Positions 103 to 35,773 of a stretch of 43,333 bases of DNA are shown here, piece by piece; the stretch's first letter is position 1, and each line of letters opens with the position of its first letter. The translations under genes and the position numbers were made by a program. Location: positions 1,612,001 through 1,655,333 of the forward strand of contig OZ237738.1 of assembly GCA_965178125.1 (NCBI GenBank), written 5' to 3'. Under the pieces are notes generated by a model. It saw nothing but the letters and a program-made list of their open reading frames with translations, did not search any database and was not told where the DNA came from. Source of the DNA: Bilabrum cf. latius. Its lineage: Eukaryota.

Positions 103-1755
103 ATGGTTTCTTTATATGCTGGTGTCGATGCCGTGTTGCTTGACATGGATGGGGTTCTGGTGGAGGTCGCTGATTCCTACCGGGCTGCGATCGTAGGGAC
201 AGCAAAAGAGTTCGGTGTTACAGTCACAATGAAAGATATCGACGCAGCGAAGGCCAAAGGAGGTGCTAATAATGACTGGGTTCTGTCTCGACGGCTCATT
301 CTTGGCGACGAAAAGGCTGCCGATGCCACATAGACTCCCACGATTGACGACGTCACAGCTGTATTCGAGAGGTTGTACCAGGGGGAAGGCGGCAAGCCTG
401 GCTTGAAATCGTTGGAATAGCCTCTAGTACCGCGCGCGCTGCTACAGCAGCTCTTGGATCGCACTAGTGGGCGTGTATGCGTAGTTACCGGTCGTCCCCG
501 CGCGGACTGCGCGGAAGCGATGGCTCGCTTCGGCTGGGACTCCCTCATCCCATCCGAGAGCTGGGTCTGCATGGAAGACGGCCCACCTAAGCCGGACCCA
601 TTTCCGATCAACCGAGCCCTAGAAATCCTCAGCAAGCGCGGCCCAGCGGCCTTGCTGCCCTCCCGCGTGGCCATGGTTGGAGACACGGTGGATGACGTGG
701 TGGCGGCCAGGAAGGCCGGAGTGCGGGCCATTGGGGTGCTCACACCTGCTGCTGCGTATGAGGATTCTGGCAAGGAGGGTGCAGCGGGAGGCAAGCAGTC
801 GGACACTCGATCCATTCTGGAGGGGGAAGGGGCAGAGGCGGTGCTGCTGCCCGGGCTGGCGGGCTTGCCCGAGCTGCTCGAGAGCCGGCCCTCTAGCGGT
901 GGCATCTTCGAGGGGCAGGGTGGTGGCGATGCCGATGCGGTGCTCCGTGAGTTGCTGGGAGGAGGAGTAGGAGCAGGTGCGGGTCCTGCAGCCAGCGGGG
1001 CGGGGGCTTCCGGTGCGCCCCCACCCCCGCAGCCCCCGGCAGCCGCACTGGCGGGGGCAGGGCCCACAGGAGATCCCGAGAGGACACTGGCCGCCCTGCG
1101 GGTCAGAGCCAAGGCGATCGCAGCCTGCCCGCCGTCAGCTCCCGAGTGGGTGGCCAGGCACGGGTTCGTCCCTCGAGAGGGTTCGTGCACTCGTCACACC
1201 AAGGAGACCAGCATTTCTGCGTGGGTGCGGCTGGACGGGAGCGGCTGGTCAGCAGTCTCGACAGGCCTCGGTTTCCTGGACCACATGATCGGGGCCATGG
1301 CCAAGCACGGGCGCATGGACGTGCAGCTGCTATGCAAGGGGGATCTCTGGATCGACGACCACCACACCGCGGAGGATTGTTCCCTGGCCCTGGGGGAGGC
1401 CATGGACCGGGCCCTCGGTGCCAGGAAGGACATCACGCGGTGGGGCAGCGCCATGTGCCCCCTGGACGAGTCGCTGGCCCGCGCCGTGGTGGACGTGTCC
1501 TCACGGCCCTATGCGCACGTGGCTCTGGATCTGCAGCGGGACAGCGTGGGAGCCATCAGCTGCGAGATGCTGTCCCACTCGCTCGAGTCCCTCCTCACGG
1601 CTGCTCGTCTGACCGCGCACGTGGATGTGCTGCGGGGGTCCAACGACCACCACAAGGCCGAGGCTAGCTTCAAGGCGGTCGGGGTGGCACTCCGCACTGC
1701 CTTCAAGCGAGACGAAGGCGCGGGTGTTCCCAGCACGAAGGGCGTGCTGGCGTAA
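103..1755 (+). CDS. HIS3: Bifunctional HAD-family phosphatase / imidazoleglycerol-phosphate dehydratase (IGPD, HisB/HIS3-type), about 550 aa with TAG read as Gln
   Basis: ORFs 103..333 and 454..1755 share a frame, interrupted only by TAG at 331 and 418, and end at TAA 1753-1755. N-terminal HAD motifs: DMDGVL, VVTGRP, KPDP, MVGDTVDD. C-terminal IGPD signatures: RHTKET, GFLDHM, GDLWIDDHHTAED, NDHHKAEASFKA, VPSTKGVL. Confidence 0.93.
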
Positions 1756-1943
1756 CGGGGGTATGCCGATGCAGAAAGCGTGTGGATCAATGCTGGCTGC
1801 TTATGGAGCCCGTGCTGAATACGCTTGGTCAACAAATCAGTTTATTTTACTTGTTTGCTCCATGTAAGCATGCTGAGTCAAAGCATTGCTGGCCCCAAGT
1901 CATGAGTCATGATCGATTCCGGAATCCGGATGGCCCGGGCACG

Positions 1944-3230
1944 TCACTTGCCCGCCCCTGCCCCTGCCCCTGCCACCGCCGCGGCCTTTGCAAGCGCCTC
2001 CATGCGAGCAGCCCTGTCCTTCTCGGCTCTCTTGGCTGCGGCCTCTACTGCCTTGGGCAGAGACACCTCATAGGGCGGGTAGCACACCCCCTCCTCGGTG
2101 ATGATTCCAGTCAGGAAGCGCGCCGGTGTCATGTCGAAGGCGGGGTTGAACACAGGCACCCCCTCGGGTGCGGTGGGGGTCCCAAACACGGTGGCTACTT
2201 CCTTGGCACCCCTCTCCTCGATGGGGATGTCCTCTCCGCTGGCGACCGAGAGGTCAATCGTGCTCGTGGGCACGCAGGCATACGCGTGCACGCCGAATTC
2301 CCGCGCCACCACGCACACCTTGAACGTGCCCACCTTGTTGGCCACGTCCCCGTTACGGGCCACCCTGTCTGCCCCAAACACAACTGCGTCCACCTTACCC
2401 CTCTGCATGAGCAGACCTGCGGCGCTGTCCGCGATCAGGTGCATCGGCACGCCAGCGCGCATGAGCTCCCAAGCGGTTAGCCGAGAGCCTTGCAGCCGGG
2501 GTCGAGTCTCGTCTACCCACACGTGGATGTCCTTGCCAGTGTTGTGACATTCGTAAATCACGCCGAGGGCCGTGCCATAGTCAATCGTAGCAAGCGCGCC
2601 GGTGTTGCAGTGGTGCAGCAGGTTGCTGCCCTTGCGGATGAGCGCTGCGCCGTACTCAGCGAGGCGCTTGTTGACGCGCACATCGTCATCGCAGATCGCA
2701 TGGGCTTCTGCTAGCAAGATCCTGCGGACATCATCAACCGTTGCATCTGGCTTTGCCTCGGCGTACGCCTTCAGAGAGTCTACCATCCGCAGGGTGGCCC
2801 ACTCCAAGTTTACAGCGGTCGGCCTCGCCTCGTCCAAGTACTTCTTTGCCTCCTCTGCGGGCCCAACGAGCTCTTTAGCTGATTTCCCATCGTATGCTGC
2901 TTCCCCGACTGCCAGCACGAGGCCGTAGGCGCCGGCGACGCCGATAGCTGGAGCGCCGCGGACAACCATGCGTCGAATTCCATAGAACACGTCCTCTTTG
3001 GTAGCGAGCTCGTTCAATTCTAGCTTTGCAGGCAACTTGCGCTAATCAATCAGATACAACCGTGCCGAAGATACGGCGTCATCGTCTCCGTCAATCCAGT
3101 ACACGGGCCTACAAGTCTTGGTGCACAACGATCTTGCTCGTTCAGGCAACGTGGACAGCTCTGGAACCTCTAGCTGTTTCAAGACCGGTCCACCGTCTGA
3201 TTCTTTTGCGGCGCCACCAGCAGCAGCCAT
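1944..3230 (-). CDS. MRI1: Methylthioribose-1-phosphate isomerase (methionine salvage), about 428 aa
   Basis: ATG at 3230. One in-frame TAG at 3044-3042 gives LID*RKLP, the conserved DQRxLP motif. Other motifs: [65 protein letters not shown]. Stop TGA at 1946-1944. Confidence 0.95.
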
Positions 3231-3478: not shown

Positions 3479-6400
3479 TCACACGACGACGACCGTGTGC
3501 AGAGCACCGGGAGCCCCTGGCGGGAACACCAGCGAGCTGCCCGCCCCCTGCACGCCATGCAGCGAGGCCCCATCTGCACCATTACCCAGCTGTGCCTCCA
3601 CGTAGTACTCTAGGGATTTCCCACCGATAGACCCGGCATCCACATTCCCTAGGAATACCCCCCTCCCCTCCATACTCTGCTTGAGAGCCACCGATGCAAA
3701 GGCCCCCTTGCTGCCCAGCGCCCGCCAGTGGAGGACGACACCCCCCTCCTGGGGCAGCACCGAGGCATCGCTCACCACCACAGCCTCCACCCGCAGATCG
3801 TCTCCTGCCTGCAGGCGGCCCCTGGGCGACATGACCCGCAGCGAGGGGCGCCCGAGGAAGCGGGGGCTGGGCTAGCACCGGGCTGGTAGCTGCTTGGGCG
3901 ATGTCAAGTTGGCCAGTTGGGCGAGCACGGGCACTTGCTCGTACACCAATCTCTGGAAGCTGTGGCTCTGCAGATTCGAACTGATGCCGCGCTCCCCGTG
4001 GGAGGAGACAGTCTGCAGCTGCAGCATGGAGGCCTGGCTCGCGTTTGACACGAGGTCGCCCAGGGCCTGGTACCCGATGCTGCGGGCCAGCTGCACCTTC
4101 TCCGCGGGGTCCTTCGCGGCCTTGATCTGGGGCAGCACGTGCGACTGCCAGGTGTACAGCGCGCAGTCAGTCCTCGACAGCTGGCGGGCGTACTAGAACG
4201 AGTCGCACCAGTAGTCGAACCGCTCCAGGGCCTGGGCGTCCCCCCAACGGGCCGCGAGGTCGCCTCCTGCCAGTGCGGTGCGAGCCAGCCCAGGTCGCAG
4301 GGAACACAGCTCGTCCACAAACGTGTAGTTGGTCTCCTTTAACTGACACTGGGACCCGTCCGAGATCAGCCCGCCGGGCCCGCCCACCCAGGATACCGGC
4401 CTAGGCATGGAGAACGAGTCCACGGCCTCGAAGATGGGAGCGGCTTGGACCCCAACCGACGGCCCGAACGAAGCCGTGGCCCACTGATTCCAGAACTGAC
4501 CCGCAGTCAAGTTCTGCCCAGAGCGCCAGGACCGCTGGGCCGTGGCCTCGAGCGTGGGTCCCACGGCCCGCGTGCGCCAATGGATGTTGGTGAACCCCTG
4601 GGCCCCGTACTTTTGCGCGTCATCTGCGTGGGAGAGCGTGCGCCACACCCAGAGTTCAGGTGCAGTCAGCCTGGGATCATCCTCAGCCCACGGGATCACC
4701 CACTTGCGGTGCCGGGTCACGTTCTGGTAAGCGGGATCCACGTACTTGTACCCCACCAGCTAGTCCAGGCTGCTGAGGGTCCACTCGGGAGACAGCTCGT
4801 AGTCCAGCAGCGAGCGGTTGCCCAGCGGACCCAGCACCCACCCGCAGGTGGCGAGGCTCAGGTTGGCCGCGATGGGGCCCAGGGCGTGCTTGGCGGCCTC
4901 GAGGGCACGGAGGTCCTCCAGTGTCTCTTGCACGAGCGGGTTGCTCACGTTCACCTTGCTCCACTCCCAGCCCTCCGGGGTCCACACCCAGTACGTGTCC
5001 AGCGAGGGGTAGGCCTGCAGGGCCCTCGCGAGGATGCCCTCGTACCAGTCCTGCCGCGAGGGCACACCGGGACCTGCAGAGGGGGCCAGCACCCAGGCGT
5101 GGCCAGTGAGGGAAGGGTCCAATGCGTATCCCTGGGCTGTCGCGTTAGACTAGCTCGCAGTGCCCTGCGTCACCGCCCGATGGTCCGTGCCCTTGCCGCT
5201 GCCCTTGCCGTACATGAGCAGCTGCACGTGCTCGTCATCGTATTGCCACGAGGAGGCACCCGCAAACGCGTACCCCTCAGTGCGCACCAGGGTGTACCCT
5301 GCCGGGGCCTGCACTCCCTCTGGCAGCAGGATATTGTCTCCTATCCCGCCGTTATAGTACGTCTTGAGGGCCACAGTGGCATCGGCGGTAGGCTGCGTCG
5401 AGACCCACCCCACGATCCCCACGGGCTCGTACAGCCCCTCGCATTCCGCGCATGACGTGGCCGTCACGAAGGAGTCTTGCCGTGATTCCGAGTAGTACAG
5501 GGTCAGGGGCTGCATCGGTTGAGGAGGCGTGACGAGTGGAGCCTCGGTTCCGATGACAGAGTTGACCCCGACCGAGTCGCCGAAGGAGAAGGCGTAGTCG
5601 AGCAGCTCGCCAGACTGCTGGAACTGGCGCTGGTAGGCTGCCTGCGTGCTGCCCCACGGACACAGGTCCTAGTCGATGTCCCTGTTCTGGAAGCAATCTG
5701 CATCGAAGAGGACCTGAGCTCCCAGCTGGTAGTCCGCAGTGGACATGATCCCGTAGTTCCACCCGCCCTTCATAGTCGAGTGCCAGGAGGCGTTGTAGGC
5801 CCATGAGACCTCGGAGCCGGACTGACCCACCTGCTCCCTGAGGCCGACCCACACGGCTGGCTCGGCGAAGATGTCGTTGATGGGGTACGTGTGCACCGCG
5901 ATGGTGTTTCCCCTGCGCTGAGCGATGCCCTCCTCCACGCGAGCCCACTCGTCGCGCGGCCACCAGTCGGGTCCAGAGGCGAAGTCGTGGAAGGGCTGCA
6001 GCCCGCGGACATCAAAGATGGGCTCGTCCACCAGGATCTCCCCGGGCTAAAGCCCAAGCAGGCCCGCTGCCCCGGTAGGCCCCAGGGATGAGGCGAGCAA
6101 GGGGTCCTCGCCGATGCCCGCTGCGAGCACCGCGCGGCGAACGCTCATTCGGCGCGATGCGAGCGGGATAGCGTACATTCCCTCGGTTGCAAATCGAATG
6201 CCGAGACGCTCCGACAGGGCGAATGCAGCATGGACAGCCGCTCGCGGGCTCGCGCCATGCACGCACACGGCTCCGCCGGTCCTGCTGATTCCAATTGCGT
6301 ACGCTTCAACGGACGTCGACGCACCGCTAACGGACTCAACGACGTACTTGCAGTCGGAATGCAGTATGTCTGTTGCAGAGGAAACGAAAATTGACAGCCG

Positions 6401-6700
6401 TACGTCCTCGATTTCGAATGCATCGGATCCAGCGGCGACGGTAGGTAGCTCGGATCCTTGGAAAGCGACTCGAAACGCACGCTACAGCTCCAAAGCGGCT
6501 TCGTTATGCTCATATCCTTCTTTCGCGTAATAGATATTGATGCTCTGACCCATCTAGATGCAGAGCAACCCGACTGCGACACCAGAAATTACCCTGCGAC
6601 CGACCCAGAAGTGGCAAGAAAATCGGACGGGTGCTCGTGTACCAGGCTCAAAACAAGCTAGTAGGTCTGACTATGACGGTAGAATCATATAATAGTTCAT
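3479..6700 (-). CDS. Putative secreted glycoside-hydrolase-like protein (predicted TIM-barrel core plus an inserted repeat domain), about 1070 aa; start uncertain
   Basis: Seven track ORFs (3479, 3872, 4193, 4760, 5150, 5669, 6047) share one frame and are joined only by TAG, with a further TAG at 6482. The frame stays open to ATGs at 6553, 6688 and 6700, and ends at TGA 3481-3479. A hydrophobic stretch VISGVAVGLLCI lies near the N-terminus. HAAFALSERLGIRF resembles the N-terminal domain of GH20/67/89/115 enzymes. RGLQPFHDFASGPDWW, YWVWTPEGWEW, WVIPWAEDDP and IHWRTR resemble uncharacterised bacterial CAZyme-like proteins (from memory, not searched). Confidence 0.65.
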
Positions 6701-6856
6701 ACATGTTCATGGTGGGGCGCATGCTGTATCCTTGCAGTGTTCAACATCATCTTGACTTTTTTCGCTAAAACTAACCGGAATAGAATTACCCATAAATGCG
6801 CGGCGATCTCCTGCACAACGGCAATCATAACCACGGAATTGGTTCAATGAAATAAT

Positions 6857-8764
6857 ATGGCTAGATGGATGGCTTGCCGTTGGTCCGGCTTGCTTGAGCT
6901 TCGGGGCAGAGGTTTTCGGGCTATGTCAACACTGAACCCGAAGCTAAACGTACGCCGGGATTTGAATGCGCCGCACAGCAACCCCCGAAGTCGGTTGAAG
7001 AAGCATAACCCAATTGAAGAGCTGCTTGGTGATGGCCCAGTGGCCGCTACGACTTTCAAACCTGGCCGAGGCAGCTGGCAACATGCCTGGAGCAGTCTTC
7101 CGAAGCAGCTGCTCAGAAATTTGAGAAGGGAAGGGCTGGCCAGTCCAACTGAAGTGTAGAGTTTAGCGTTCCGGTCTATATCAGGCGGAGCCGATGTTGT
7201 GCTGACTGCAGAGACTGGCAGTGGCAAGACCCTTGCTTTCTTGTTGCCCCATCTTGCTAGGTTATTTAGAACAGGCCCGAAGACCCGTGGGAATTCGTCG
7301 GGTTTCAAACCATCTAAAGAGAAACTGCAACGAAATACGTCAAATGGCAAATGGAGTGGTCCACATCTGTTGCTGCTCGCCCCGACTGCTGAACTGTGCA
7401 CTCAGGTGGCTGCTGCTGTTGTTTCTGTAGCCCCCCAGCTGGAGCCAGTGGTGATCTCTAGCACAGGCAGTGCAAAATCTGGCAGTGTGCACTTTCCTGA
7501 GGGTAGCGAGTGGCCTTCACCCATCCTGGTGGGAACGCCAACCGGCCTGCTGGGCTTGGTCCGCAGGCTGCCCTCCCAGCGAGGAAGAGGGCACCCGTTG
7601 CGGCACTGCACCGCGGTCGTCGTAGATGAGGCCGACTTGGTGCTGCAGCAGCCGCAGGCCCGCCGCTCGCTAGAGCAGCTGCTCGCCTTGTGTGGTCGAG
7701 AGGAATTGCCAGCAGCGGCCAAGAGAGTGTCATCCGATGTGCAGGTCGCTGGTGGCTGTGCTGGCGATGGCACGATGAGGCGACCGCGCGAAGCACTTGC
7801 CGCGCGCAATCGTGCCCCAACCGTGCAGCTAGTCCTGGCGATGGCATCAGCAGAGGCATAGACCCAGCGCCGCACCGGTGCCTGGCTCAGAGACCACTGC
7901 CCGGGGGCGGTGCAGGTGCGCACCGAGGGCTTCCACAGGTTGCCTGAGCGACTGCTGCACCGGGTGCGGGCCGTGGACGTCAGCGTCACAGCTGACGGCG
8001 GTGCGACATCCCACGGTCGTGACGGGATGTACGAGGACACGGAGGATGCATTGGGGGATGGGGACGGGGGCGTGCTGGGTGACGATGACGGTGGCTTCGG
8101 GGCGGTCGTGGAGGGGGTCGCAGAGGCGATTCTGGACGCGCCCTCGCCCTCCCCGCCCTCTGATGGGAGCCAGGAGAAGGCATTCAAGCAGCTGCGCGAG
8201 AGGCGGGGGAAGTCCGGAGGCTGGCCCTGGCAGACGCTCGTGTTCGTCACCACGTTCGACGAGGCGGAGGCAGTGGCCGACGGGCTAGAGGTGCTGCTAC
8301 CGGGGCTTTCCGTGGCCTGCCTGCACCGGAACTTGCCCATGGCGGCGAGGAGGGGTGTGATGAGTGCACTCCAAGGAGGCGCGGCCCCATCCGCAATAGG
8401 ACAAAGTCGAGCATGCGCAGGGGCAGGGGTAGTGGCAGTGGCAGGCGGTGCGAGTATCGTGCCAGAGGTGGACGTTCTAGTGGCAACCGATCTGGCGGCG
8501 AGGGGGCTGGATGCAAAGGGGGTGGGTCACGTAGTGCAGGTAGGGCCTGCCACTGACCTTGCGCAAATGCTGCACAGATGCGGACGCACGGCTAGGGCAG
8601 GTTGGTCTGGCACGGTCACGACGCTCACGAGGAGCGAGCAAGAGCGGTCTGCTGCTCTCCAGATGGAATAGCGGGCCAGGGGCGGAGTTCGTGATGCTAT
8701 CAGTGCTAGCAGAGATGCGCAGTGGAAGCGCAGGAGGTTGCGGAAAGGAAAGGCAAAGGGGTAA
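6857..8764 (+). CDS. DEAD-box RNA helicase, probably mitochondrial (DDX28-like), about 635 aa
   Basis: Single frame with TAG at 7157, 7859 and 8669 and stop TAA at 8762-8764. Q-motif PTEV* has TAG at the invariant Gln. Motif I AETGSGKT, Ia LAPTAELCTQ, Ib VGTP, II DEAD, V VATDLAARGLD, VI HRCGRTARAG. The Arg-rich N-terminus resembles a transit peptide. Confidence 0.88.
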
Positions 8765-8871
8765 CCATCGAAGGTTCCTCCGTCCGTGGCAGTTCGGAAT
8801 TCTCGACATATTAGGACGAAATAGTCCATGTGTGATAAACTAGGCACAAGAAGTGCAGAGTTGAATTGAAT

Positions 8872-14835: not shown

Positions 14836-15258
14836 TCATGTCTTCTTGTCAATCTGGTTCCTCTCCTATATCTTCTTTCTTCGCTCCGCCCGGATTACAC
14901 GCTTGAGCTCTTTGTACGACAGATTCTCTGGCCCTCGGCTCTTGAGCTCCTCAATCGTAGGGTCTTCTTCCAGTAGTTCAAAGAGCCACGCCGGGTACTC
15001 TGAGTCATCCAAATACTGTGGTTCTTCCCCACCCTGCTTCAAGTTGACAGGAATGTCCTTGGTCAAGTCGAACTTCTCTGCGCTGCCCCCACCTCCGCCA
15101 CCACCTTTTGCTTTAGCACTGGCAGACGTGCTAGATGCTATGCATCGTCTGAACTTATCGCAGGCAGAGCATGAAACAATGCGCAATAATCCAAAATCCT
15201 TCGGAAGACGACTACCAGCCCGACATGATGCTGCGGCTACTCTTCGGGCGGCACGCAT
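14836..15258 (-). CDS. MRPL54: Mitochondrial ribosomal protein mL54 (MRPL54 / yeast MRPL37 family), about 140 aa
   Basis: Motif VNLKQGGEEPQYLDDSEYPAWLFELL follows an Arg/Ala/Ser-rich transit peptide. Reading TAG 14868-14866 as Gln completes the C-terminal helix RRKKI*ERNQIDKKT. Stop TGA at 14838-14836. Confidence 0.82.
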
Positions 15259-18500: not shown

Positions 18501-21146
18501 CGCTGCGATGGATGCTGCCAGCAAGGCTCTGCGCAGCCACCCAGAAGATGCACCACCCTCGCCGTCGCCAATGAAGCCCCCAGTAGCAGCCGGCGTAGTG
18601 GAGTCTTGACCCCCTGCTTTTCCTTTCCGCCTCTTCCTCTTCTTCTTCTTGGCAGGCGGCGGACCAGCAACGAGGCCCATTCCCCTCGCGATCGCAACGA
18701 TGCCCTTCTTCCCAATCTTGTCGATGAGTCCACCCGCACTAGCCAACAGCGCCCCTGCGGCTGCCTGCGATACCGCGCGGGCCTCCGAGGCCCGCCGCCC
18801 TGCGGCCTCGATCTTGGCCATCAGCTACGGAGCGAGCTCATCGGCGAACTACTCGGCGGGCTCTAGGTCCTCTCCATCGGTCCCAATGCGAACCGCTGCC
18901 TCCTTCATGTCTAGGGTGGCTTCTTCTGCTGTATCTGCGCGGGCTGCCTAGACGGCAATCTCCCTTGCAGCCCGCTTGAGTCTCGCCTTGAGCTCTCGCA
19001 ACGCGTGGAGGGCATGCGAGGGGTTGGAAGCAGTCTGCCGGAGCCTTGCGTCTGCTGCGGCCGCCTGGGCAGCACCCACCGCAGCATGGGTTAGAGATGG
19101 ACTGGCTACGGTCATGTGCACGAGCGCAGCTGGGTCGCTGGGGTATCCATCTGTCGGCGCGGCATGAGCGGAGTGAGCTACCGGCGCAGTCAGCGTGGGA
19201 AGGAAGCCCCGTTCGGCCGACTCGTCAGGCCCAGCGGTGGCAGAGGCCGCGTGAGCTGACTGCAGCCCCCGCCTCTGCCGGGGAGAAAAGGTGGCTCCCA
19301 AACGGGGGCGGCCAGCCCCGGCGGGCACGGAGCCGGGTCGCGCCTGCCTGCCCCCTGTGCTCTTCTCTCCCCAAGCCGACCGAGAAGGTGGCACTGGCCT
19401 CGCCCCGGGCCCTGCAGACGAGGAAACAGGAACATCTCCAGCCATGACTTGCGCGATGGAGCGCCGCATGCCCTCGGCAGCGCGGGCAGCAGCCGCCATG
19501 CGCCCCTCCATGAGGCGGCTCCTGGCCACTTCACCGGCACTGCGCCTTCGTTCCGTTGCAAGCTGCATCTCTGCCTCAATTGCCCGCCGTCTCCATTGCT
19601 CAGCAATTGCCTTCCAATCGTCCGTTTCTCCTCTCGACCGACCACCAGCTGTATCGTCACCGTCCTTAACAGATCCAGAGCCACCCACACCCACGCCCAC
19701 GCCCACGCCTAGCCCGCCGTTGCCACCTCGATCTTCCCCGCTGGGCTAGAGAGGCATGTCTCCGCTCGGGGGAGCCATCAATCGGGCTCCAGCCTCCGCC
19801 AGGGCAGCCCTATCAAGCGCCTGCTCCTAGAGCAGGTACTTGCACAGCTGCTCAAGCTCCTCCCGTGACAAGGGGCTGCCGAACGCGCTGGACAGCCCTG
19901 GATCGCCTCCTCGAGTGCCTCTGCCTCCCGATCTCCTCGTTGCACCCGCCGCATCGAGTGCCTATGAAAGAGACGCCCCAGCCCGCTGCACCGCCCCTGC
20001 CAGCCGAATCATCACATTCTCCGTTTTCCGCAGCGCTGCCTGGGCCTCCAGCGCGGCTGTGGCGCTCTCCTGCTCTGCCTGGGAGAGGGCAACGATCAGC
20101 GGGGCCACGTGCTGGGGGCGGAGCCTGGGGGCCACCTGGTCTCTGCGGGAATCCACGGTCCGCCTTGTCTCCCCGTCCACCTGCATATGCCCTTCCCCTT
20201 GCCCTTTCCCGCCAGACTGCTGATCCCCAGGCTCCCACCGGGCGGGCTGCTCAAGCTCGCCACCGCCTGCCTGAGGCGGGAAGAATCCACCGTCTTGCGC
20301 CCCCGGCCTATCCATGCTAGGCGACTATCCCGGTGATCTCTGCCTCGGAGTTCTAGCCCTCCCTCTTGTCCTGGTCCTGGCCGCTCCTCCAGCGTCCCCG
20401 TACGGCGACTGGGCAGCCAGAGATCGCTGGGCAGGAGAGAGGGCGCCGCGAGGCCTGGACCGGGACGGAGACCGGTCCGACTCTTGTCTCCCAACACGAC
20501 TAGATTCAAGCTTGGCAAGATGGTCGCGCTTTTTGGTTTGACCTCGAACCCCGGCGGGCGGTCTTGCTTCTTCCTGTTTGCGTGTGCGGCGGCGAGTCTC
20601 CCGAGCGAGCCGAGCCATGCGAGCCTGCCGCTCTGATGCACTATCATCAGACTTTTCTTCTTCATCGAGCTACTTCGCTTCTTGTGGCTTTCTACGTCGT
20701 TCTCTTGGGCTCGACTTGCGCGAACTAGCGGTTGCTCGGATGCGGCGCCTAGAGTTAGCGCTCTACATTGCCTGTGCTGCAGCCTGCGAGCGGGGACGCG
20801 AGGAAACCTCTGACACATGGCCATTGGTATGCCCATTGTTTTGCTCTGGTTCATCTGGTTCGGCCCGCGGCTTTGTCAGGCTATCTTCCTAGGCCTCAGT
20901 GTCGCTGGCTGCTGCTGCGCTCCCTGCAGCATTACTCGAATCGCCGCTGTCCGAGCCGGAGTCGCTCATGGTTAAATTTTCTACAGGTGCCCCTGCAGCT
21001 TCGCTGGCGCCGCCTGCGCTCGACCTGGAGTCCTCCTCGAACGCAGGTGGGGGGATGGTGCTGTTCGGGTTGCCGGGGCTGTTCGACGAGCGAAACGATA
21101 CTTTTGATGCCAGCTCCCTCTGTCTGTCCGCATCTGAGTCTGACAT
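15525..21146 (-). CDS. Large hypothetical low-complexity / coiled-coil protein, about 1873 aa
   Basis: Nine track ORFs (15525, 16500, 17133, 17640, 18171, 18948, 19962, 20325, 20889) share one frame. Every interrupting stop checked is TAG (at least 16). ATG at 21146, stop TGA at 15527-15525. Ala/Gly/Ser/Arg-rich with helical segments (AIAEQWRRRAIEAEMQLATERRR); no recognised domain. Confidence 0.7.
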
Positions 21147-21695: not shown

Positions 21696-24053
21696 ATGAA
21701 AATTATTGACCATGTTAATACAAAGATCAAAGAAGGCCGCTAGTTCTACTCATTTGAGTACTTTCCGCCCAGAACGCAGCTTGGTTTGGAGAACCTGTGA
21801 GGCCATCTATCTATTGTGGATCAACAGCGCAGCTTCAAGCTTACAAAAGTATGCCAAATGCTGCTGCAATTATTTATCATACTGTACCGCAGGCTCCTTC
21901 GTATGGATCGGATGGCTGCTCTTGAGCCTGCGTTTATGGATGTGACATGGACTGCAGGTGGGGATCCTGCTGAGCATGAAAGGGCATTTGCTCTGTGTGA
22001 CCACGCGCGAAAAGTGGCAGGTGTTACGCCTATGCTACATCTTACCCTGACCGGCATGACGGTCGAGGCCATCAAATCTGTGCTGAGTACTGCAAAGCAG
22101 CGCGGAGTTAAGAACATCCTCGCGCTCCGTGGCGATCCAGCCCGCGGCTAGACAGAATGGAAACCGGTTCCTGGTGGGATGAGCAAGGCAGAAGACCTTG
22201 TGCGGTTGATTCGCAAGGAGCACGGAGACTACTTCTGCATCGCAGTAGCAGGCTTTCCGGAAGGCCACGACGGCGCCGGTAGGGAGGCGAGCAAGCCGCC
22301 AGCGGCAGCCCGTCCATCGACGGATGCCGCCAGTCCTGACAGCTCCGGCGCGGAACGCGCGGCAGACAAAGCCCTTCGCGCCGTGTCTGCCCCTCGCGAG
22401 GAGGAAAAGCCGGTCGAGGGCGAGAGCAAGGAGGCCGGCGCCGCAGCCAACGACAAGCCAGCCCCTGCCGTAGCACCCGCCAAGGCGCCGCTGTCGCCCT
22501 CCAAGGACCCAGCTGCAGCCGGGGACCCATGGGCCGGCTCGGACGGCTCGTATGCTGTGGACCTGCGCGCGCTGAAGGGCAAGGTGGACGCAGGTGCTGA
22601 CATGGTTCTGACGCAGCTCTTCTATGATCCCGCCGTGTACTCTGCCTTCGTGAGAGACGCGAGGGCGGCGGGGGTGCCCGACTCTGTGCCCATCATCCCC
22701 GGGCTGCTGCCGCTGTACTCTCGGGCCGCCTTCGAGCGAGTGACCCGGCACTGCAACATCGTGGTGCCCCGTCCACTGAGGGACGTAGTGGAGGCGTGCG
22801 GGTCGGACGAGGCCAAGCTGAGGAGGGCGGGGCGGGCCTACATGGCGGCTATGGGAGAGGAGCTGCTGGCGGCAGGTGCCCCTGGTCTGCACTTCTACAC
22901 GCTCAATTTGGAGAGCGAGGTGCGGGCCATCCTGTCCTCCCTCGGTCTGGCCAAGGGGCTTGAGGCGAGGAAGCTGCCGTGGAGGCCCAGCGCGGATGGG
23001 AGCAGGGCGGGGCAGGAGCAGGTGCGGCCCATCTTCTGGGCGAACCGGCCGCGGTCCTATGTGGCCCGCACGGAGGACTGGGACGTGTTTCCTAGGGGCA
23101 GGTGGGGAGGGGCGGACAACCCCGCCTTCGCTGAGCTGCAGCAGTCGCACTTTGCGGGGCTGGTCCTGGGCAGCGCCGAGGAGCGGAGGGCCATGTGGGG
23201 AGAGGCCCCTGCCTCGGACTCGGCTGTGAGGGAGGTTTTCGTGGGCTACTTGACGGGCCGTATTGAGCGGCTGCCGTGGTGTGACCAGCCGCTGCATGCC
23301 GAGACCTCTCCCCTGGTAGACGCCATGGCCAGGCTCAACAGGGCGGGCTACCTCACCATCAACTCGCAGCCCAGGGTGAATGGTGCCAGATCAGATGACC
23401 CCACCTACGGCTGGGGTGGCAAGGGCGGCTATGTGTACCAGAAGGCGTACATCGAGTGCTTCTGCCGCCCCAAGGCTCTGCGGGCCCTCATGGAGGCAGC
23501 CCTGGAGCACCCGTCCATCACGTACCTCGCCTCGGACAAGAAGGGCAACACGTACAGTAATCGCGAGAGCACAGCGGCAGCGCTGAGCCGATCGGCGAGC
23601 GGGGCCTCCTCGGGGGCCGGGGCGGACGGTGCCGGGCTGACTGCCCCCCGCACCAAGGCGTACGCAGTCACCTGGGGCGTATTCCCTGGGCGTGAGGTGA
23701 AGCAGCCCACCGTGGTGGACCCTGCTGCTTTCTTGGCGTGGCGTGACGAGGCCTTCGTGCTGTGGGGCGAGGCATGGGCGGGCATCTACGAGGCAGACAG
23801 CGACGCCAGGGAGCATCTGGAGGCCATGCGTGACGAGTGTTTCTTGCTGTGCGTGGTGGATGACGACTTTGTGGGTGGCGATGTGTTTGCTGTGTTCGAC
23901 AACGCGGCTCGGAGGCTGGGGTACCCTGGTGGACTGGAGGACTGCGTTGGTCCAGAGGCAGCGGCTGGGGGGGCAAGTGCAGACGGGTCTACCGCTGGCA
24001 CAGCGGGTGAAGAGAAGGCTGCTGCGGGTGCGGCGGCAGCGGCTGCTACGTGA
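21696..24053 (+). CDS. MTHFR: Methylenetetrahydrofolate reductase, eukaryotic type with C-terminal SAM-binding regulatory domain, about 753 aa; exons 21696..21796 and 21893..24053
   Basis: Starts MKIIDH...FYSFEYFPPRT. A GT...CGCAG intron spans 21797..21892 (96 nt). Motifs: MDVTWTAGG, NILALRGDPARG*, IAVAGFPEGH, LKGKVDAGAD, TQLFYD, LHFYTLN, VRPIFWANRP, LTINSQP, GYVYQKAY, AVTWGVFPG. TAG at 21741 and 22149; stop TGA at 24051-24053. Confidence 0.95.
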
Positions 24054-25030: not shown

Positions 25031-25165
25031 CTTCTGATGTACTCACCCCCGCATCACTTGCTGCCGTCCCAATTACGGAACATCACATCTCCAGGTGCGC
25101 GGCGACTAGATCGGATCAGATCAACCACAAGCAGCCAACGGCGCTAACATCCGCGTGTTTACACC

Positions 25166-25992
25166 ATGTTCGAGAAGGTAAGCGTCTGTCGAGCTGTCAT
25201 TTGAATCATTGCGTGTATTCGTGGTCTAATTGTTGCAGAATTTTCTGTGATTCGATTGGATTGCAGCGGGACGCCAGCTTTTGTTTTGATGCAGTTGCTA
25301 TGGTCAACACTCACGCCTTGCCCTTCCATGATGTTTTCTCCTGATGAACACAGGTGGTCGTAATTGATTGCCGGGACCATCTCCTGGGCCGTCTGGCCTC
25401 CGTGATCGCGAAGCAGCTCCTATGCGGGCAGGACATCGTTGCTGTGCGTACTGAGCAGATCAACATCTCCGGCTCTCGTGAGTATTCGATGGAACGGAAA
25501 TGCATCCACCATGTAGTATTGTATGATATCATTTCTTTGCCTCGAGGTACCTGGCCATTTTCTCCTGCAGTCTACCGGAACAAGGTGAAGTACTGGAGCT
25601 TCCTGCACAAGCGCACCAACACCAACCCCGCGAAGGGTCCCTTCCACTTCAGGGCACCCTCCCGTATGCTTTGGAGGACTGTGCGTGGCATGCTCCCCCA
25701 CAAGACTCCCCGCGGTCAGGCAGCTCTGCAGCGCTTGAAGGTGTTCGAGGGCGTGCCCCCCCCGTTCGACAAGATGAAGCGTGTCGTAGTGCCCGACGCC
25801 CTGCGCGTGCGCAAGTTGAAGATCGGCCGCGAGTACTGCGTGCTTGGACGTCTGGCTAGCGAGGTGGGCTGGAAGCATGGCGACCTGATCGCTAAGCTGG
25901 AGACCGACCGCAAGGTTGCCGCCGAGGCGTGGTACCAGAAGAAGCTGGAGCAGGCCAAGGTGGCTGCTGCTGAGAAGGCCAAGCATGCTTGA
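25166..25992 (+). CDS. RPL13A: 60S ribosomal protein uL13 (L13a), about 185 aa; exons 25166..25177, 25354..25477 and 25571..25992
   Basis: [27 protein letters not shown]...NISGSLYRNKVKY...[43 protein letters not shown]. Introns GTAAGC..CAG (25178..25353) and GTGAGT..TGCAG (25478..25570). Stop TGA; no in-frame TAG. Confidence 0.96.
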
Positions 25993-26306
25993 GCTGTACA
26001 TAACAGGGAGGCAAGTGGGGATGGTCGGTCCCCATTCAATCAAATGGCCACAGACGTTGCTATTGGGTACGCTGGTATGGAGCTTCACAATGGAGTTGTC
26101 GGGGTTTGGCATGCTTGATGCAAACAATAGAAGGTCAGAAATCACCCTACACATTTTTCAAATCGCGCGACTCATGCTAAGTCTCACCCTTGCAAGGAAC
26201 CTGTGGCGGAATCATTGCATATGGCCTAATTCTACGTCGGGCAACCTGACGTCGGATCTTGGAAATAAAGCAAAGTAACCTGGTCGTGGCTGGCAAGACA
26301 CGAATA

Positions 26307-27668
26307 TTACTCTTCCATGCCAGCTGCGCCACTGCTTCCCCCAGGGGCGGCAGGGCCCGGGGCCGCAGCTCCACCGGCGCCCCCAAGCACACCACCTCCA
26401 GCAGGTGCAGCAGCGGGTGCGTCCCCTGCGCCGTCATCCATGGGCGCCGCCCCGCCACCACCCAGCACCCTCCCCTCTCCAGTCCCGCCAGCAGTAGCTC
26501 CAGCGCCAGCCCTAGTGCCTCTAGACCGGAAGGGCATCCTGGCGGCACCCCCCGCGGCGGCCCCCGCCAACCCCCCCTTGCGCACAGCCTCTGGGAGCGA
26601 GGCGAAGAACGGATGCGCCAGGGCCTGCTCGGCTGTGACCCGCTTGGAAGGGTCGTGCTACAGCATACCACGCAGCAGATCCAGCCCGTCCTTGTCCAAT
26701 CCAGGCACCAGTCGCGCCACATCGTTGGCGGGGTACAACTTGAACTTGCCTGTGCGATACTGCGGCAGCTCGAGCAACCCAGGGAATGCTTCCTCCGTGG
26801 GCGTGCCCATAGTGCGAAATATACGCAGCAACTGGTCGTCGGGGTCTGCTCCGGGGAACAGAGGCTTCCCCGTCACCATCTCGGCAAAGATGCAGCCTAC
26901 GCTCCACAGGTCGACCGGTGTCGAATACTTGGTGGACCCCAGGAGGACATCCGGAGGGCGGTACCACAGAGTCACAACCTCGTGCGTATATGATCGCACA
27001 GGAATTCCAAAAGCCCTTGCCAGCCCGAAATCAGCCAACTTGAGCTTGCCTTCCCGGTTGATGAGTAAATTCTGGGGCTTAAGATCGCGATGCAGCACGT
27101 GATGCGTGTGGCAGTACGCGATGCCAAGAACCAACTGATACAATAAATGCCGTACTCGTGGGATCTCCAATCCGCCGCCAGTACCGTCCAGCAACTTCTT
27201 CAGATCCACATCCAAGAACTCGAACACGAGCGTTAGCTTCTTGTCGGTGTGCACGACATCGTACAGTCTGCGGTTGGCCAAAGGAAGCAAGGAGCACTAT
27301 GATGGCATGGTGAACACACGGGATTTACACTTACAGCAACCTCTACCATTCCCTGCAAGCTACGCAAGGTCTTGATTGGCCTTGTTCGCTTGGGTCTGAT
27401 GAATGCCCCTTGCATGTAACAATGAGGCTAGTGCAGCGATCTTCGACACATTATCAACAAAGTTCTAGTCTTACCTGACAATGTTCGGGTGTTTCAGCTC
27501 CTTGAGCAACGAAATTTCACGGATAGCGGTGGATGGGATGCCTTCATCTTCCGTCTCCAGCCTTATCCTCTTCAGGGCAACAATATCGCCGGTGTGTCTG
27601 TCCCTCGCCTTATACACGATTCCATATGTACCCTCCCCGACTCGTCCAAGCCTCTCGTAGCGCTCCAT
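26307..27668 (-). CDS. PSTAIRE cyclin-dependent kinase (cdc2/CDK5-like), about 384 aa; exons 27668..27475 and 27267..26307
   Basis: Motifs [64 protein letters not shown]. Intron GTAAG..CCGCAG spans 27474..27268 (207 nt). TAG 26660-26658 lies before subdomain XI ([20 protein letters not shown]). Gly/Ala-rich tail; stop TAA at 26309-26307. Confidence 0.93.
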
Positions 27669-27833
27669 TTAAGTAGTACAATGGAGTGGACCGCAGTGCC
27701 GATGTCGACACTGGTTCTCGTTCGAAAACACACCTTACAAATCTCCAGCAGCAACCTTTGTTTTAAGCAGTAGGAAGCGCGGTTTAAGATACGAATCAAG
27801 AAGTGATGCTGTGATCGCTCCGCAACACCTAGT

Positions 27834-32374: not shown

Positions 32375-35300
32375 ATGAACGCCCAACGAGCTCGCCTGAA
32401 AAGCTGGTCGTAGCGTAGAAAGAGCAAGCGGGGCCGAGCCCAGAGCAGTTCCAGTGAATCATCCAGCAGCGGTGCCAGCGATGCAGACGTGGAGGTTGAT
32501 GGTGCTGACGTGAGTTTAGTTTCTGTGTCTGGACGACAGGCCATGCGTGACAGCATAGAAGCTTCGCGTATCGATCGAGAAAGACAGCTACGCCTCGCTG
32601 CGGATCGCAAGGCTCGGAAAAAATGGTTCGCACCGGCTTCTGACGATGGTCTAGCTGATTTTATCGTCGGTAGTGATGAGGAAGAGGAGGAAGAAGACGA
32701 GCCACCTCCCAAAAAAAAGCGGCGGCGAGACAGCGGCCAGGTCGGCACGGCATCGTCCAAATCATCTAGCGAGGACGACAGCGATTCCTCGGATGCTGCA
32801 CCGGTCATGGGCCATTTTGGACTAATGCTGCAGCAAGATTTGCGATATGAAAAGGATTCGAGCACGCCAGGTCTTGGTTTCATGCGCGAGCTGCACGCCC
32901 GAGGGCTCCTACGCGTCCCTCGCGGCATCCAGGCCGACGACTACGTTTCAGTGAGCTCTCCCTCGCGCGGGACTGGCACTGCGGGAGACCTGCTCGAGGT
33001 TGGGGCATTCCTGGACATGGGGCGGAGACTCCCAGCCTTTACTCGGTTCAGCCTGTACCTGCGCATGCTGGCGCTGCACCTGTGCTACCGGCATGCGGCC
33101 AGGTACCTCAGGGCCCGGCCCCGGTCCGAGGACTCCCGCTGCTGGGTGCTGGCCAGGGATTCGGTGGAGGCCGTGCTCAACCGACACGCAGAGAACGTGC
33201 GTTCTGGTGCGTGGTAGCAAAAAGGTACGGCAGCAGCCGCTGCGCAGGGACTGTCCGCAAGCTTCGCGCGAGCCAACGCGGAGGCAGGGCAGCACGAGTC
33301 TGCCATCACCGCCTCTGCTGTCGCAGTGCAGCACCTTCCCGGTATCGCCATTGCATCACTCCCGACGGAACTTAGGCCAGCTCGGTGCGGGCTGTGCAAC
33401 CGCCGCATGCCCGCCCGCCTCGCCCTGACTATGTTCTCGCTTGGATCGGCTGCGTGGCACCCGATGCAACTGCGGGACGAGAGCGATTTCCGAGCCTCGA
33501 CCTGGAGCTCCAGGGGCAGGCACGTAAAGGGCGAAGGCAAGGCTGGTCGCAGGGCCAGCAAGGATCAGGTCCGGGCCTGGGAGTGGATGGCGGTGCCTCC
33601 TGGGTGGGAGTCTTCCATCCCGAGACAGGGGGACAAGGGGGTGGCGGGGGCGGGGCTGCACGATCCTCTCTCGGCTGCTGTGGGGGCCTTCCGGACACGG
33701 AGACATGCGCCTGGCGTGCGATTGCGGCGAGGGGGGTGGACAAACCCGTATGATTACGTGCAGGTGCCAGGGTGCGCCTGGTACTAGGGGTAGTCGAGCA
33801 CTTGGGCCGCGTCTGCTAGCCCACAGAGGCGCTAGCGAATATCCAGTGCCATGGCGGCGCTTGGCGGGGCTGGTGGGAAGATGGAATGGGCGCAATCACA
33901 CAAGGGTGGTCCTGCTCATCTTCCACCGAGGTATGCAGTGTCAGTGGCTGCTGGCACCACGTGCGCCCAGCGCATGGCCCTCTATTCGTCCTGCATCCAC
34001 TTCAAGGGCAGGCTGCTGGCCGCTGTGTCGTCCCACCTGCGGCAGTCACTCAAGTTCGGGGCAGCGCTCGACCGAGCACGATTGCGTGCGCGGGAGAAAC
34101 AGGGCAAGCAGGCCGCCTCTGCAGCTGGTGCTAGCGAGGACTACGAGCAATCCGCTGCCAAGACGAAGCCTAGCTCAGGCTCTTCGTCCGAGGATGAGGC
34201 GGAGTGGAGCGATGACCCCGGTGCACAAGTGAAGGGCAAGCCCAGGCCTTCTCGACTAAACACCACTGTGGACTCGGAGTCTGAGAGTGACGGTGGCACG
34301 GCTGCAGACTCAAAGGCCGCCTCTGTGGTGGAGTCAGTGAGGCGAGACAAAGCACCTTTCAGCAAGGGACAGGCGCGCGCAGCTCTGCCCAGAGCACCCG
34401 AGATGGAGGAATTGACCCGGGCTGTGAGTGGGCCCGCCTGGCAGTCCCTAGAGCGGACGTGGTACCAGCGCATGGTGGAGCTCCAGCGATAGGCCACTGG
34501 GTTCTTGCTCAGCAGTTCTCGGTCAGAGCGGGTGTCAGTCCGCAGCATGCTGCACCAGATCGCATCCATGGCCACGAATGAAGCTGATGATGACCGAGTG
34601 GCGATGCGACAGCTAAATGCATCTACTCAACGTCTCGGGCGCAGGAAGAAATCCACTGGGGAAAAAGGCAAGGGTGCAGGAGGTAGCGACTCGGAAGATA
34701 ATGAGGACTACAGGCTAGGCAGTCCCTTCCGATTAGCAACACGAGGCGGGCACTCGGGAAAGCATGCAGCCCATGCACCTAAACTGGCTGCCGAGTGGAT
34801 CACTGCAGCCGAGGATGCAGAAATGACGGAGGAGGGGAACGGTCTCGTTGCATTCGCGAACTCTCTGCCCATGGGTGGCATGCCTGGCAGTAGCGCTGGT
34901 GTTGGAGACGATGCGGAAGATGAGGAGGAGGAGGAGGGGGAGGCCGACTCGTCAGCAGATTCGCTGGGCTTCATGATCGGCCACTCCCCAGACGAAAAGG
35001 GAAGTGACAGCGAGGAGGACAGTAGCGACAGCGATGCTGGTGGAGGTAAAGACCCTAGCGCACAGGCTGCCGGATCACGCGCCAAAGAAGCCAGCGAATG
35101 GGATACTTCGGATGATGACGATGTTCTGAAAGCTGCGGGGCAACTCGAGTCAGATGCGTCCACGGAACCTGACGAGGAAGATGATAGTGGACAGGACGAA
35201 GTCGACGAGACTACTATAGGACCGTATCTCACCGGTAGTCGAAGTCGCAATCGATATTCAGTTGCAACTGGGCGGGCTCCGCCAGATGATACCCCCCCGC

Positions 35301-35773
35301 CGATTGCACTGTGTCGCTTCCTTACCGGCCCAAAGCCGAAACCGCCGAAAGAGAAGAGCAAGAAAAATGGCAAGAGCCGCGTGCTTGACGACATGTTATC
35401 GTTCTCGAGTGGCCATGAAGATTATAATGACGACGATGACGATGAGGATGAGGACGAGGATGAGGATTAGAATGGTGGAAGCATGGCGAGGAACTCCAGG
35501 TAGCAACCTCGAGGTAGTCGTCCGGATTCCGAACTCTTACGCGAAGTAGGCAGGAGGCGCTAGCCTTCCAAGGGTATGTCCGACAGCCAGCCGCGCGCAC
35601 CTGTGGTCGCAGAGCGGAAGCATGTAGTGGTTGTCAGTGACTCCTCAAGCAGCGATGAGTCTGTAGCAGCAGCAGATGGCAATGGCGCGGTGAGGGTGGA
35701 AAGTATAGCAGAAGAGGACAAACCGAAGAAGGTGAAACTTCCCATGCTCGGCAAACTGCGAGTCAGGTCCTAA
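32375..35773 (+). CDS. CCDC82/DUF4211-like protein with acidic low-complexity tracts, about 1132 aa
   Basis: ATG at 32375. One frame with at least 7 TAG (32411, 33215, 33785, 34490, 35468, 35501, 35561) and stop TAA at 35771-35773. ADFIVGSDEEE, SGAW, CGLCNR and AGTTCAQRMALYSSCIHFKGRL resemble the DUF4211 CxxC...C...H pattern as recalled from CCDC82. Confidence 0.62.

Follow-up and report, generated by a model that had tools for sequence, protein, structure and literature searches.

In the window analysed here, the whole stretch of 43,333 nucleotides of Bilabrum cf. latius DNA, UAG encodes glutamine and termination is left to UAA and UGA, and the stretch itself is the GC-rich end of a stramenopile nuclear chromosome whose owner stands beside the Cafeteria roenbergensis clade; we give this combined reading a probability of about 0.9. 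The GC content is 0.61 and the chromosome ends in TTAGGG arrays. The code is of a rare type, which we take to be NCBI table 15 (TAG = Q).

The stop-to-stop reading frames of positions 1-35900 were compared under different codes. With the standard code the longest ORF was 633 aa, and with TAG as a sense codon ORFs of 1969, 1422, 1301, 1174 and 1075 aa appeared. Taking TAA as sense left the longest ORF at 633 aa, and taking TGA, the commonest stop trinucleotide, as sense served as the chance control and gave 906 aa. ORF length alone is no proof in GC-rich DNA, since the antisense strand of the methylenetetrahydrofolate reductase (MTHFR) gene also yields a TAG-sense ORF of 773 aa, with 13 TAGs and without a Pfam match. 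Codons were counted in 13 coding segments bounded by Pfam matches, the first ATG or RNA-supported exon borders, and the identity of eight of them is supported by Pfam:

103..1755, plus strand: HAD-phosphatase and imidazoleglycerol-phosphate dehydratase (IGPD) fusion (Pfam PF00475, PF00702); 2 in-frame TAG (331-333, 418-420), stop TAA
1944..3230, minus strand: methylthioribose-1-phosphate isomerase, MRI1/MtnA (Pfam PF01008); 1 in-frame TAG (3042-3044), in the L-I-D-Q-R-x-L-P motif, stop TGA
3479..6700, minus strand: conserved 1073-codon protein without Pfam match (1151 homologs at E<=0.001); 9 in-frame TAG, stop TGA
6857..8764, plus strand: DEAD-box helicase (Pfam PF00270, PF00271); 3 in-frame TAG, including that of the Q-motif glutamine (7157-7159), stop TAA
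8872..13107, plus strand: tubulin-tyrosine-ligase family protein (Pfam PF03133); 10 in-frame TAG, stop TAA
13646..14770, plus strand: U1-type zinc-finger protein, last exon (Pfam PF06220; intron 13556-13645); 3 in-frame TAG, stop TGA
14836..15258, minus strand: small expressed 140-codon ORF (ORF listing, contig depth raised at 14671-15337); 1 in-frame TAG, 10 codons before the stop TGA
15525..21146, minus strand: 1873-codon low-complexity protein without Pfam match (translation); 16 in-frame TAG, stop TGA
21893..24053, plus strand: MTHFR, main exon (Pfam PF02219, PF21895; intron 21797-21892); 1 in-frame TAG (22149-22151), stop TGA
25571..25992, plus strand: ribosomal protein L13a (RPL13a), last exon (Pfam PF00572; intron 25478-25570); no TAG, stop TGA, poly(A) site 26144
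26307..27267, minus strand: cyclin-dependent kinase (CDK), last exon (Pfam PF00069, PDB CDK matches; intron 27268-27474); 1 in-frame TAG (26658-26660), stop TAA
27834..31712, plus strand: 1292-codon Q/S-rich protein without Pfam match (ORF translation); 18 in-frame TAG, the highest number in any gene, stop TGA
32375..35773, plus strand: 1132-codon acidic low-complexity protein without Pfam match (ORF translation); 9 in-frame TAG downstream of the first ATG, stop TAA

These segments comprise 10,085 codons, with 74 TAG, no TAA and no TGA in frame. The two other frames of the same spans hold 162 TAG, 55 TAA and 319 TGA, from which about 187 TAA plus TGA would be expected per frame, against none observed. 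The first-pass annotation had described TAG codons that interrupt most genes without shifting the frame, together with a lack of in-frame TAA and TGA, and both statements were borne out by the counts. Its tallies (TAG in 13 of 14 genes; terminators TGA in eight and TAA in six) changed slightly with one gene fewer modelled: TAG is present in 12 of the 13 segments, only the RPL13a exon being free of it, and the segments terminate in TGA eight times, as claimed, and in TAA five times. The TAGs that it had placed at 10633-10635, 12175-12177 and 12190-12192 are exactly there, as is the one at 30387, which is codon Q861 in the ORF that begins at 27807. That the genes end in TAA or TGA is partly true by construction, because these were the codons at which ORFs were closed. 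About 16% of the glutamine codons in the window genes are UAG, which is sparse where a gene is conserved or highly expressed and crowded in low-complexity proteins. Along the genes the in-frame TAGs were distributed over the length deciles as 10, 9, 10, 4, 12, 3, 6, 7, 7 and 6, and they occur as near as 10 and 31 codons upstream of the real stop.

The meaning of the codon was sought in aligned homologs. The TAG column of MRI1 is invariant, with Gln in all 119 homologs covering the position and in 3 of 3 PDB chains, and that of the DEAD-box Q-motif holds Gln in 14 of 14 aligned homologs. The first-pass annotation was thus right in placing TAG at a conserved glutamine in these two proteins; its third example, the GDPxxGQ motif of MTHFR, did not hold, since that column is mostly Ala among 20 homologs (A9, L3, S3, Q2, K2 and one gap). 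The MTHFR ortholog P0280, which is 98% identical, does carry Gln at the TAG position. Other residues also prevail at three columns of the 1075-aa protein among 61 homologs (TAG649: R 44, Q 3; TAG838: R 30, Q 6; TAG346: G 34, Q 3), and the CDK column holds Lys in the 3 PDB chains shown. Judged from the alignments, the columns of this kind are variable ones, at which the closest relatives carry Gln or CAG.

A second source of evidence was an 11.5-kb metagenome contig, L001, which has four genes in the same order as the window and encodes orthologs 45-66% identical to the window proteins. Its ORFs reach at most 218 aa with the standard code, versus 1467, 1069 and 692 aa with TAG as sense; they contain 38 TAG, 0 TAA and 0 TGA in frame (3226 codons) and end in TGA, TGA and TAA. 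Its TAGs are mostly at other sites than those of the window. Twelve more distant loci compared with it showed no jump in ORF length with TAG as sense. Since a clearly diverged relative has it too, the UAG code is a trait of the lineage and not of one assembly. L001 has CAG at the TAG site of MRI1 and likewise TAG at the Q-motif glutamine of the helicase, and in its ortholog of the 1073-codon protein (66% identical) three of the nine window TAG sites are CAG and two are TAG. Between the window and L001, TAG faces a sense codon at 49 sites, and the partner encodes Gln at 19 of them (CAG 18, CAA 1). The share was 18/29 where at least 5 of the 10 flanking residues were identical and 10/16 where at least 7 of 10 were. 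At these three thresholds (all 49 sites, >=5/10, >=7/10) Gln was the maximum-likelihood assignment of UAG, leading the next residue by 38.8, 42.0 and 25.6 ln units, and its share among the TAG partners (0.39, 0.62, 0.62) matched the rate at which ordinary Gln codons are themselves conserved (0.43, 0.55, 0.59). The pairing demonstrates that, in terms of codon exchange, UAG has behaved as the equivalent of CAG in evolution. Taken with the invariant Gln columns, it supports the view that UAG is a sense codon behaving as Gln.

The stretch is matched by contigs from runs of three studies, and those named X5, X6 and X7 have GT..AG joints at four introns (for the U1-type zinc-finger gene the joint 13555/13646, in X5) and poly(A) at 26144, which lies 152 nt downstream of the RPL13a TGA. 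X5, X6 and X7 were taken as RNA from these joints, poly(A) ends and uneven depth, their automatic labels being guesses (X6 and X7 as tentative RNA, X5 as tentative RNA but probably DNA); at RPL13a the splice joint and loose poly(A) ends are accompanied by very high contig depth. The contigs and the DNA differ at 2 bases in 20 kb, none of them at a TAG. Of the 35 in-frame TAGs in 8001-28000, 24 lie within listed contig pieces, without a difference, and eight of those 24 are covered by both RNA studies. The spliced contigs of X6 and X7 retain both the TAG of MTHFR, unchanged, and that of CDK. In the tubulin-tyrosine-ligase gene 9 of 10 TAGs are in listed transcript contig pieces, and in the 1873-codon protein 12 of 16 are in one X5 contig (15394-20174), again with no difference. 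UAG is therefore kept in the mature spliced mRNA, neither edited nor spliced out. The comparison with mRNA was a check that the first-pass annotation had proposed; its outcome was that contigs of two further studies, spliced or polyadenylated, read the same as the DNA at the TAGs they span.

The same data bear on the possibility that the TAGs are not translated at all, being sequencing or assembly errors for CAG, targets of U-to-C editing of the mRNA, or parts of introns or pseudogenes. TAG and CAG are one transition apart, and the codon that TAG most often faces in L001 is CAG, as such errors or editing would have it. Against this, contigs of three studies agree, the 2 differing bases in 20 kb falling at no TAG, the four introns found leave the TAGs in, L001 has its own in-frame TAGs, and the genes are conserved and expressed, so that we give this explanation practically no weight. 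It is very improbable, too, that UAG stands for another residue, for instance Lys, Glu, Leu or Arg. The Arg favoured by distant homologs at two columns of the 1075-aa protein would speak for it, as would the Lys of the CDK column and the Lys found as TAG partner at 4 of the 49 L001 sites, but TAG fills two invariant Gln columns, the 98%-identical MTHFR ortholog has Gln, and in the pairing test no other residue comes within 25 ln units of Gln. Leu and Ser were rejected because both fall outside the five residues that score best in the likelihood test.

The two other explanations accept Gln and differ in how UAG is handled. In an ambiguous code, like those of Condylostoma, the karyorelicts and, for UAA, Blastocrithidia, UAG could mean Gln within genes and yet terminate some of them near their 3' ends. 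With ORFs closed at TAA or TGA, true UAG ends would have been read through at the 13 + 3 gene ends examined. However, the IGPD fusion aligns to the end of the solved IGPD chains and has its stop at this conserved C-terminus, no conserved protein of the window has a TAG at the homologous C-terminus, and TAGs are spread over all length deciles, up to the immediate neighbourhood of the real stops. In this small sample of 16 gene ends and the conserved C-termini there was no sign of UAG as a terminator, and we regard such a code as improbable. Somewhat more room should be left for the reading of UAG as Gln by a near-cognate tRNA-Gln(CUG), or by a structurally altered tRNA, with a weakened eRF1 and no dedicated tRNA-Gln(CUA); it still appears unlikely. 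In the 43-kb window and the 11.5-kb L001 no tRNA gene was found, and hence none with a CUA anticodon, and both near-cognate readthrough by tRNA-Gln and a short-anticodon-stem mechanism are on record in the accounts of PMC13192750 and PMC13092985. An altered tRNA would resemble the case of Blastocrithidia, where a tRNA-Trp with a 4-bp anticodon stem reads UGA. On the other side, up to 18 UAGs in one gene demand very efficient decoding at each site, and the simplest route in UAG=Gln lineages, as treated in PMC5304391, is a mutated copy of tRNA-Gln(CUG) giving CUA.

For the preferred reading, a dedicated UAG=Gln code, we infer that a tRNA-Gln with the anticodon CUA would decode UAG, such a mutated tRNA-Gln(CUG) copy being its simplest source, that the glutaminyl-tRNA synthetase would accept the CUA anticodon, and that eRF1 would have lost or weakened its recognition of the third-position G and kept UAA and UGA. 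The eRF1 gene is not within the window. Motifs of its N-domain tied to UAG recognition in the account of PMC5304391 are GTS, NIKS, YxCxxxF and their neighbours.

The organism was placed by one gene tree, that of MTHFR, and by lists of best matches. The best named MTHFR match was Cafeteria roenbergensis (55% identity). Of the 16 named matches that could be placed, 15 were stramenopiles and one was Balamuthia, and in the ML tree the window sequence adjoins a clade with Cafeteria (100/100). The best named MRI1 matches were oomycetes (58-62%), and Chloroflexi proteins score alike. These results support a grouping of the organism with the stramenopiles, probably near Bicosoecida and beside the clade holding Cafeteria roenbergensis. 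The earlier suggestion of a stramenopile-like organism, neither ciliate nor fornicate, agrees with both the single gene tree and the best matches. Since the organism is neither a ciliate nor a fornicate, an independent origin of its UAG=Gln code would be the natural reading. No report of a nuclear UAG reassignment in stramenopiles appeared in the literature searched. We put at about even odds that this would be the first change of the nuclear code in stramenopiles, an independent reassignment of UAG only to Gln in a GC-rich clade near Cafeteria with at least two well-diverged members, the window organism and L001. If true, the clade could serve, outside the ciliates and metamonads, as a test system for an eRF1 that drops UAG but keeps UAA, because genome and RNA-seq data for it exist from three studies.

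Codes in which UAG is a sense codon differ in what they share with the window. The UAR=Gln code is NCBI table 6. In it UAA is also Gln, whereas in the window there were no in-frame TAA among 10,085 codons and TAA is the stop of 5 of the 13 genes; this code was rejected for the window, where TAA as sense left the longest ORF unchanged. Among its users PMC11687900 names many ciliates, Hexamita, ulvophytes, Streblomastix and Amoeboaphelidium. UAG is uncoupled from UAA, as in the window, in a sainouroid rhizarian, where it is Leu (PMC5304391), and in Scotinosphaera, where it is Ser (cited in PMC11687900), but the amino acid differs. For UAG=Gln with UAA and UGA as stops, four other lineages are described in PMC11687900. 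Three are ciliates, Protocruzia tuzeti and two phyllopharyngean lineages (McGowan et al. 2024, PMC11687900), which share the code table of the window and, in that account, represent several independent origins; they belong to the Alveolata and have their own genome architecture, in contrast to the GC of 0.61 and the ordinary chromosomes of the stramenopile studied here. The fornicate Iotanema spirale (Panek et al. 2017, PMC5304391) is described with the same codon, amino acid and UAA/UGA terminators and with UAG across many ordinary genes, and the GTS motif of its eRF1 is altered by T32G. Unlike the window organism, it is an anaerobic endobiont of the Metamonada represented by a transcriptome only. 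UAG=Gln with UAA and UGA as stops is an already described variant of the code, to which the present organism adds a member.

The reading frames at positions 1-35900 were compared under alternative meanings of the three stop codons. With the standard code the longest stop-to-stop frame was 633 aa. When TAG was read as sense, the longest frames were 1969, 1422, 1301, 1174 and 1075 aa, while TAA as sense left the longest at 633 aa and TGA as sense, the control reading with the commonest stop trinucleotide of this GC-rich window, gave 906 aa. In the 13 coding segments modelled (10,085 codons) we counted 74 in-frame TAGs, in agreement with the approximately 70 reported in the first-pass annotation, and, as stated there too, neither TAA nor TGA occurred in frame. 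The two other frames of the same spans hold 162 TAG, 55 TAA and 319 TGA, thus about 187 TAA and TGA codons together would be expected per non-coding frame. TAG is present in 12 of the 13 segments, and the genes end in TGA (8) or TAA (5). The earlier figures had been 13 of 14 genes, with eight TGA and six TAA ends; the TGA count was reproduced, and the other values are lower by the one gene fewer that was modelled. The TAG positions quoted at that time (10633, 12175-12192 and 30387) proved exact. Antisense to MTHFR (21821-24142, minus strand), reading TAG as sense also opens an ORF of 773 aa, which contains 13 TAGs, lacks a Pfam match and arises as a side effect of coding in GC-rich DNA. Since such an ORF makes length weak evidence in GC-rich DNA, the case must rest on homology.

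The window is gene-dense eukaryotic nuclear DNA (GC 0.61 at 1-35900) with a small number of short GT..AG introns. The following features were assigned:

103-1755, plus strand: HAD and imidazoleglycerol-phosphate dehydratase (IGPD) fusion (Pfam)
MRI1/MtnA, methylthioribose-1-phosphate isomerase (Pfam)
DEAD-box helicase, DEAD (Pfam)
tubulin-tyrosine-ligase family protein, TTL (Pfam)
U1-type zinc-finger protein (Pfam)
MTHFR (Pfam)
ribosomal protein L13a, RPL13a (Pfam)
cyclin-dependent kinase, CDK (Pfam)
35860-36220: 53-bp tandem array
36222-36736, 37510-37762, 39517-39906, 40680-40932 and 42687-43333: TTAGGG arrays, the last reaching the window end

The HAD-type phosphatase and the IGPD are encoded by a single ORF with a Gly/Ala/Pro-rich linker. 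Four long proteins without a Pfam family and one small expressed ORF were also found. One gene lacking a Pfam family (3479-6700, minus strand, 1073 codons; its product is called here the 1075-aa protein) has 1151 homologs (E<=0.001), among which many Trp, Gly, Asp and Glu residues are all but invariant; it belongs to a widespread uncharacterised family, perhaps of enzymes. The segment 24063-24999 between MTHFR and RPL13a is transcribed, according to contigs of the public runs X6 and X7, and holds no convincing ORF in either code; it may consist of untranslated regions or encode a non-coding RNA or a small protein gene, and it may be the fourteenth gene of the first-pass annotation. The rest of the window, from 35860 onwards, is a chromosome end made up of subtelomeric satellites and TTAGGG arrays, a 155-bp satellite alternating with the arrays to form a higher-order repeat of roughly 3.17 kb. 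The TAG-rich 'ORFs' of this region (35860-43333) consist of these repeats only.

In order to avoid a bias towards Q, TAG was translated as X in the alignments with homologs. The TAG column of MRI1 holds Q in all three solved MtnA chains and in 119 of the 119 homologs covering it (120 aligned, one of them a fragment), and the TAG in the DEAD-box Q-motif is matched by Q in all 14 aligned homologs, so both glutamines had rightly been taken as conserved. The 'GDPxxGQ' of MTHFR, also put forward as a conserved motif, did not hold up, because its TAG column varies (A9, L3, S3, Q2, K2 and 1 gap; n=20). P0280, an MTHFR ortholog of 98% identity from another public assembly, has Q at the TAG of the window. 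The CDK column varies too, with K in the 3 chains shown. Among 61 distant homologs of the 1075-aa protein, R predominates at TAG649 (44, with Q in 3) and TAG838 (30, with Q in 6) and G at TAG346 (34, with Q in 3), the numbers being residue positions. Owing to this variation the MTHFR and CDK columns and most of the distant-homolog columns of the 1075-aa protein are uninformative. In P0126, the closest homolog of the latter (47% identity), TAG649 and TAG838 are each matched by Q. Both TAGs of the HAD-IGPD gene fall outside the part aligned with PDB chains.

When metagenome contigs were searched for the 1075-aa protein, 13 loci were recovered. One of them, L001 (11,476 bp, GC 0.55), carries TTL, DEAD, the 1075-aa protein and the start of MRI1 in the gene order of the window; the first three products share 56%, 45% and 66% of their residues with those of the window. 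Its longest ORF is 218 aa in the standard code; with TAG as sense, ORFs of 1467, 1069 and 692 aa appear, which contain 38 TAG and no TAA or TGA in frame (3226 codons). The 12 other loci, with more distant homologs, have long standard-code ORFs which show no jump in length when TAG is read as sense, and thus serve as a negative control. Codons were paired over the three ortholog pairs at sites with TAG in one genome and a sense codon in the other, and each of the 20 residues was scored using substitution frequencies that the ortholog alignments themselves supplied.

Pairing of TAG with sense codons between the window and L001 (Gln lead is that over the next residue)
No flank filter: 49 sites; Q at 19 (CAG 18, CAA 1); Gln lead 38.8 ln units; Q share of TAG partners 0.39; ordinary Gln self-conservation 0.43
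Flank identity >=5/10: 29 sites; Q at 18; Gln lead 42.0 ln units; Q share of TAG partners 0.62; ordinary Gln self-conservation 0.55
Flank identity >=7/10: 16 sites; Q at 10; Gln lead 25.6 ln units; Q share of TAG partners 0.62; ordinary Gln self-conservation 0.59

At all three thresholds Gln was the best-fitting residue, and TAG behaves as an ordinary Gln codon. The invariant glutamine of MRI1 is CAG in L001 and TAG in the window, and at three sites, the DEAD Q-motif among them, TAG stands in both genomes. These comparisons support the reading first proposed and show UAG to be a fully fledged Gln codon in the window and in L001.

The gene ends were examined in both genomes. The three complete genes of L001 end in TGA, TGA and TAA; in the window the IGPD stop lies at the conserved C-terminus and the RPL13a TGA is 152 nt upstream of the poly(A) site. 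In-frame TAGs are present in every decile of gene length, the nearest being 10 codons from a real stop. This spread argues against termination at UAG near the gene ends, although a sample of 16 ends is too small to make the conclusion firm. UAG accounts for 16% of the Gln codons in the window and for 26% of those in L001, and is commoner in low-complexity proteins (18 in the 1292 codons of one) than in conserved or highly expressed genes (0/139 codons in RPL13a, 1/719 in MTHFR, 1/428 in MRI1).

Public sequencing runs (X1-X7), filed under three different organism labels (A, B and C) across three studies, cover 6851-13107 almost fully. Between 8001 and 28000, contigs from X5, X6 and X7 omit four GT..AG introns (13556-13645, 21797-21892, 25478-25570 and 27268-27474), show a poly(A) end at 26144 and vary in depth from below 1 to above 2800. 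Thus these contigs derive from RNA, a nature inferred from contig mapping, the run-kind labels being guesses ('probably DNA' for X5). Over 20 kb only two bases differ from the window (8065 and 24829), neither of them at a TAG. At least 24 of the 35 in-frame TAGs of 8001-28000 lie inside listed contig pieces with zero differences, at least 8 being covered by both RNA studies, and the spliced MTHFR and CDK contigs keep their TAGs unchanged. The in-frame TAGs are therefore no artefact and are neither edited nor spliced out.

The host had been described as stramenopile-like. The best named MTHFR match is Cafeteria roenbergensis (55% identity), followed by oomycetes and ochrophytes at approx. 42-47%, and no heterolobosean occurs among the named MTHFR matches in the 120 rows listed. 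In a maximum-likelihood MTHFR tree of 21 sequences, with midpoint rooting for drawing only, the window and its 98% relative adjoin a clade of Cafeteria and four sequences; the 7-row grouping has a support of 100/100 and the window branch is long. The best named matches of MRI1 and DEAD are oomycetes, Chloroflexi MtnA proteins scoring similarly. Neither the tree nor the best matches point to Heterolobosea. These data support a stramenopile near the bicosoecids, as a single-gene placement.

UAA and UAG are nearly always reassigned jointly, and the UAG-only cases are few. Such cases are natural experiments on how eukaryotic release factor 1 (eRF1) separates a third-position G from A, and another independent one, in a different supergroup and a GC-rich genome, is a replicate for weighing codon capture against an ambiguous intermediate. 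Non-standard nuclear codes would also extend to stramenopiles. Standard-code gene callers shatter the proteins of this organism: the public protein P0182 (96% identical, 120 residues) stops directly in front of TAG346 in the 1075-aa protein, and P0155 stops at residue 741, which is encoded by TAG in L001 and by CAG in the window. These two and P0400 are standard-code fragments of close relatives, broken at TAG, so this lineage has to be annotated, binned from metagenomes and used in phylogenomics with table 15 (UAG=Gln, UAA/UGA stop).

By analogy with other UAG=Gln lineages (PMC5304391), a duplicated tRNA-Gln(CUG) with its anticodon mutated to CUA would read UAG and not UAA, a change in the eRF1 N-domain would weaken recognition of the third-position G, and the glutaminyl-tRNA synthetase would tolerate the CUA anticodon. 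ARAGORN found no tRNA gene in the window or L001 (43 kb and 11.5 kb), and Rfam at gathering thresholds gave zero matches in the window.

A full-text literature search covering few subscription journals returned no account of UAG being reassigned in the nuclear code of a stramenopile. Two RNA-seq studies and a genome data set from 2025 suggest that work on the organism is in progress, and publication elsewhere is possible. UAG is Leu in a rhizarian (PMC5304391) and Ser in Scotinosphaera (PMC11687900), and it is Gln, UAA and UGA remaining stops, in Iotanema spirale (PMC5304391, PMC11687900) and in Protocruzia tuzeti and two lineages of phyllopharyngean ciliates (PMC11687900). Thus the code variant is already known, and the lineage appears to be new. 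The present case departs from table 6 (UAR=Gln), because UAA is not sense here, and agrees in every sequence-level respect with the code of Iotanema, Protocruzia and the phyllopharyngeans.
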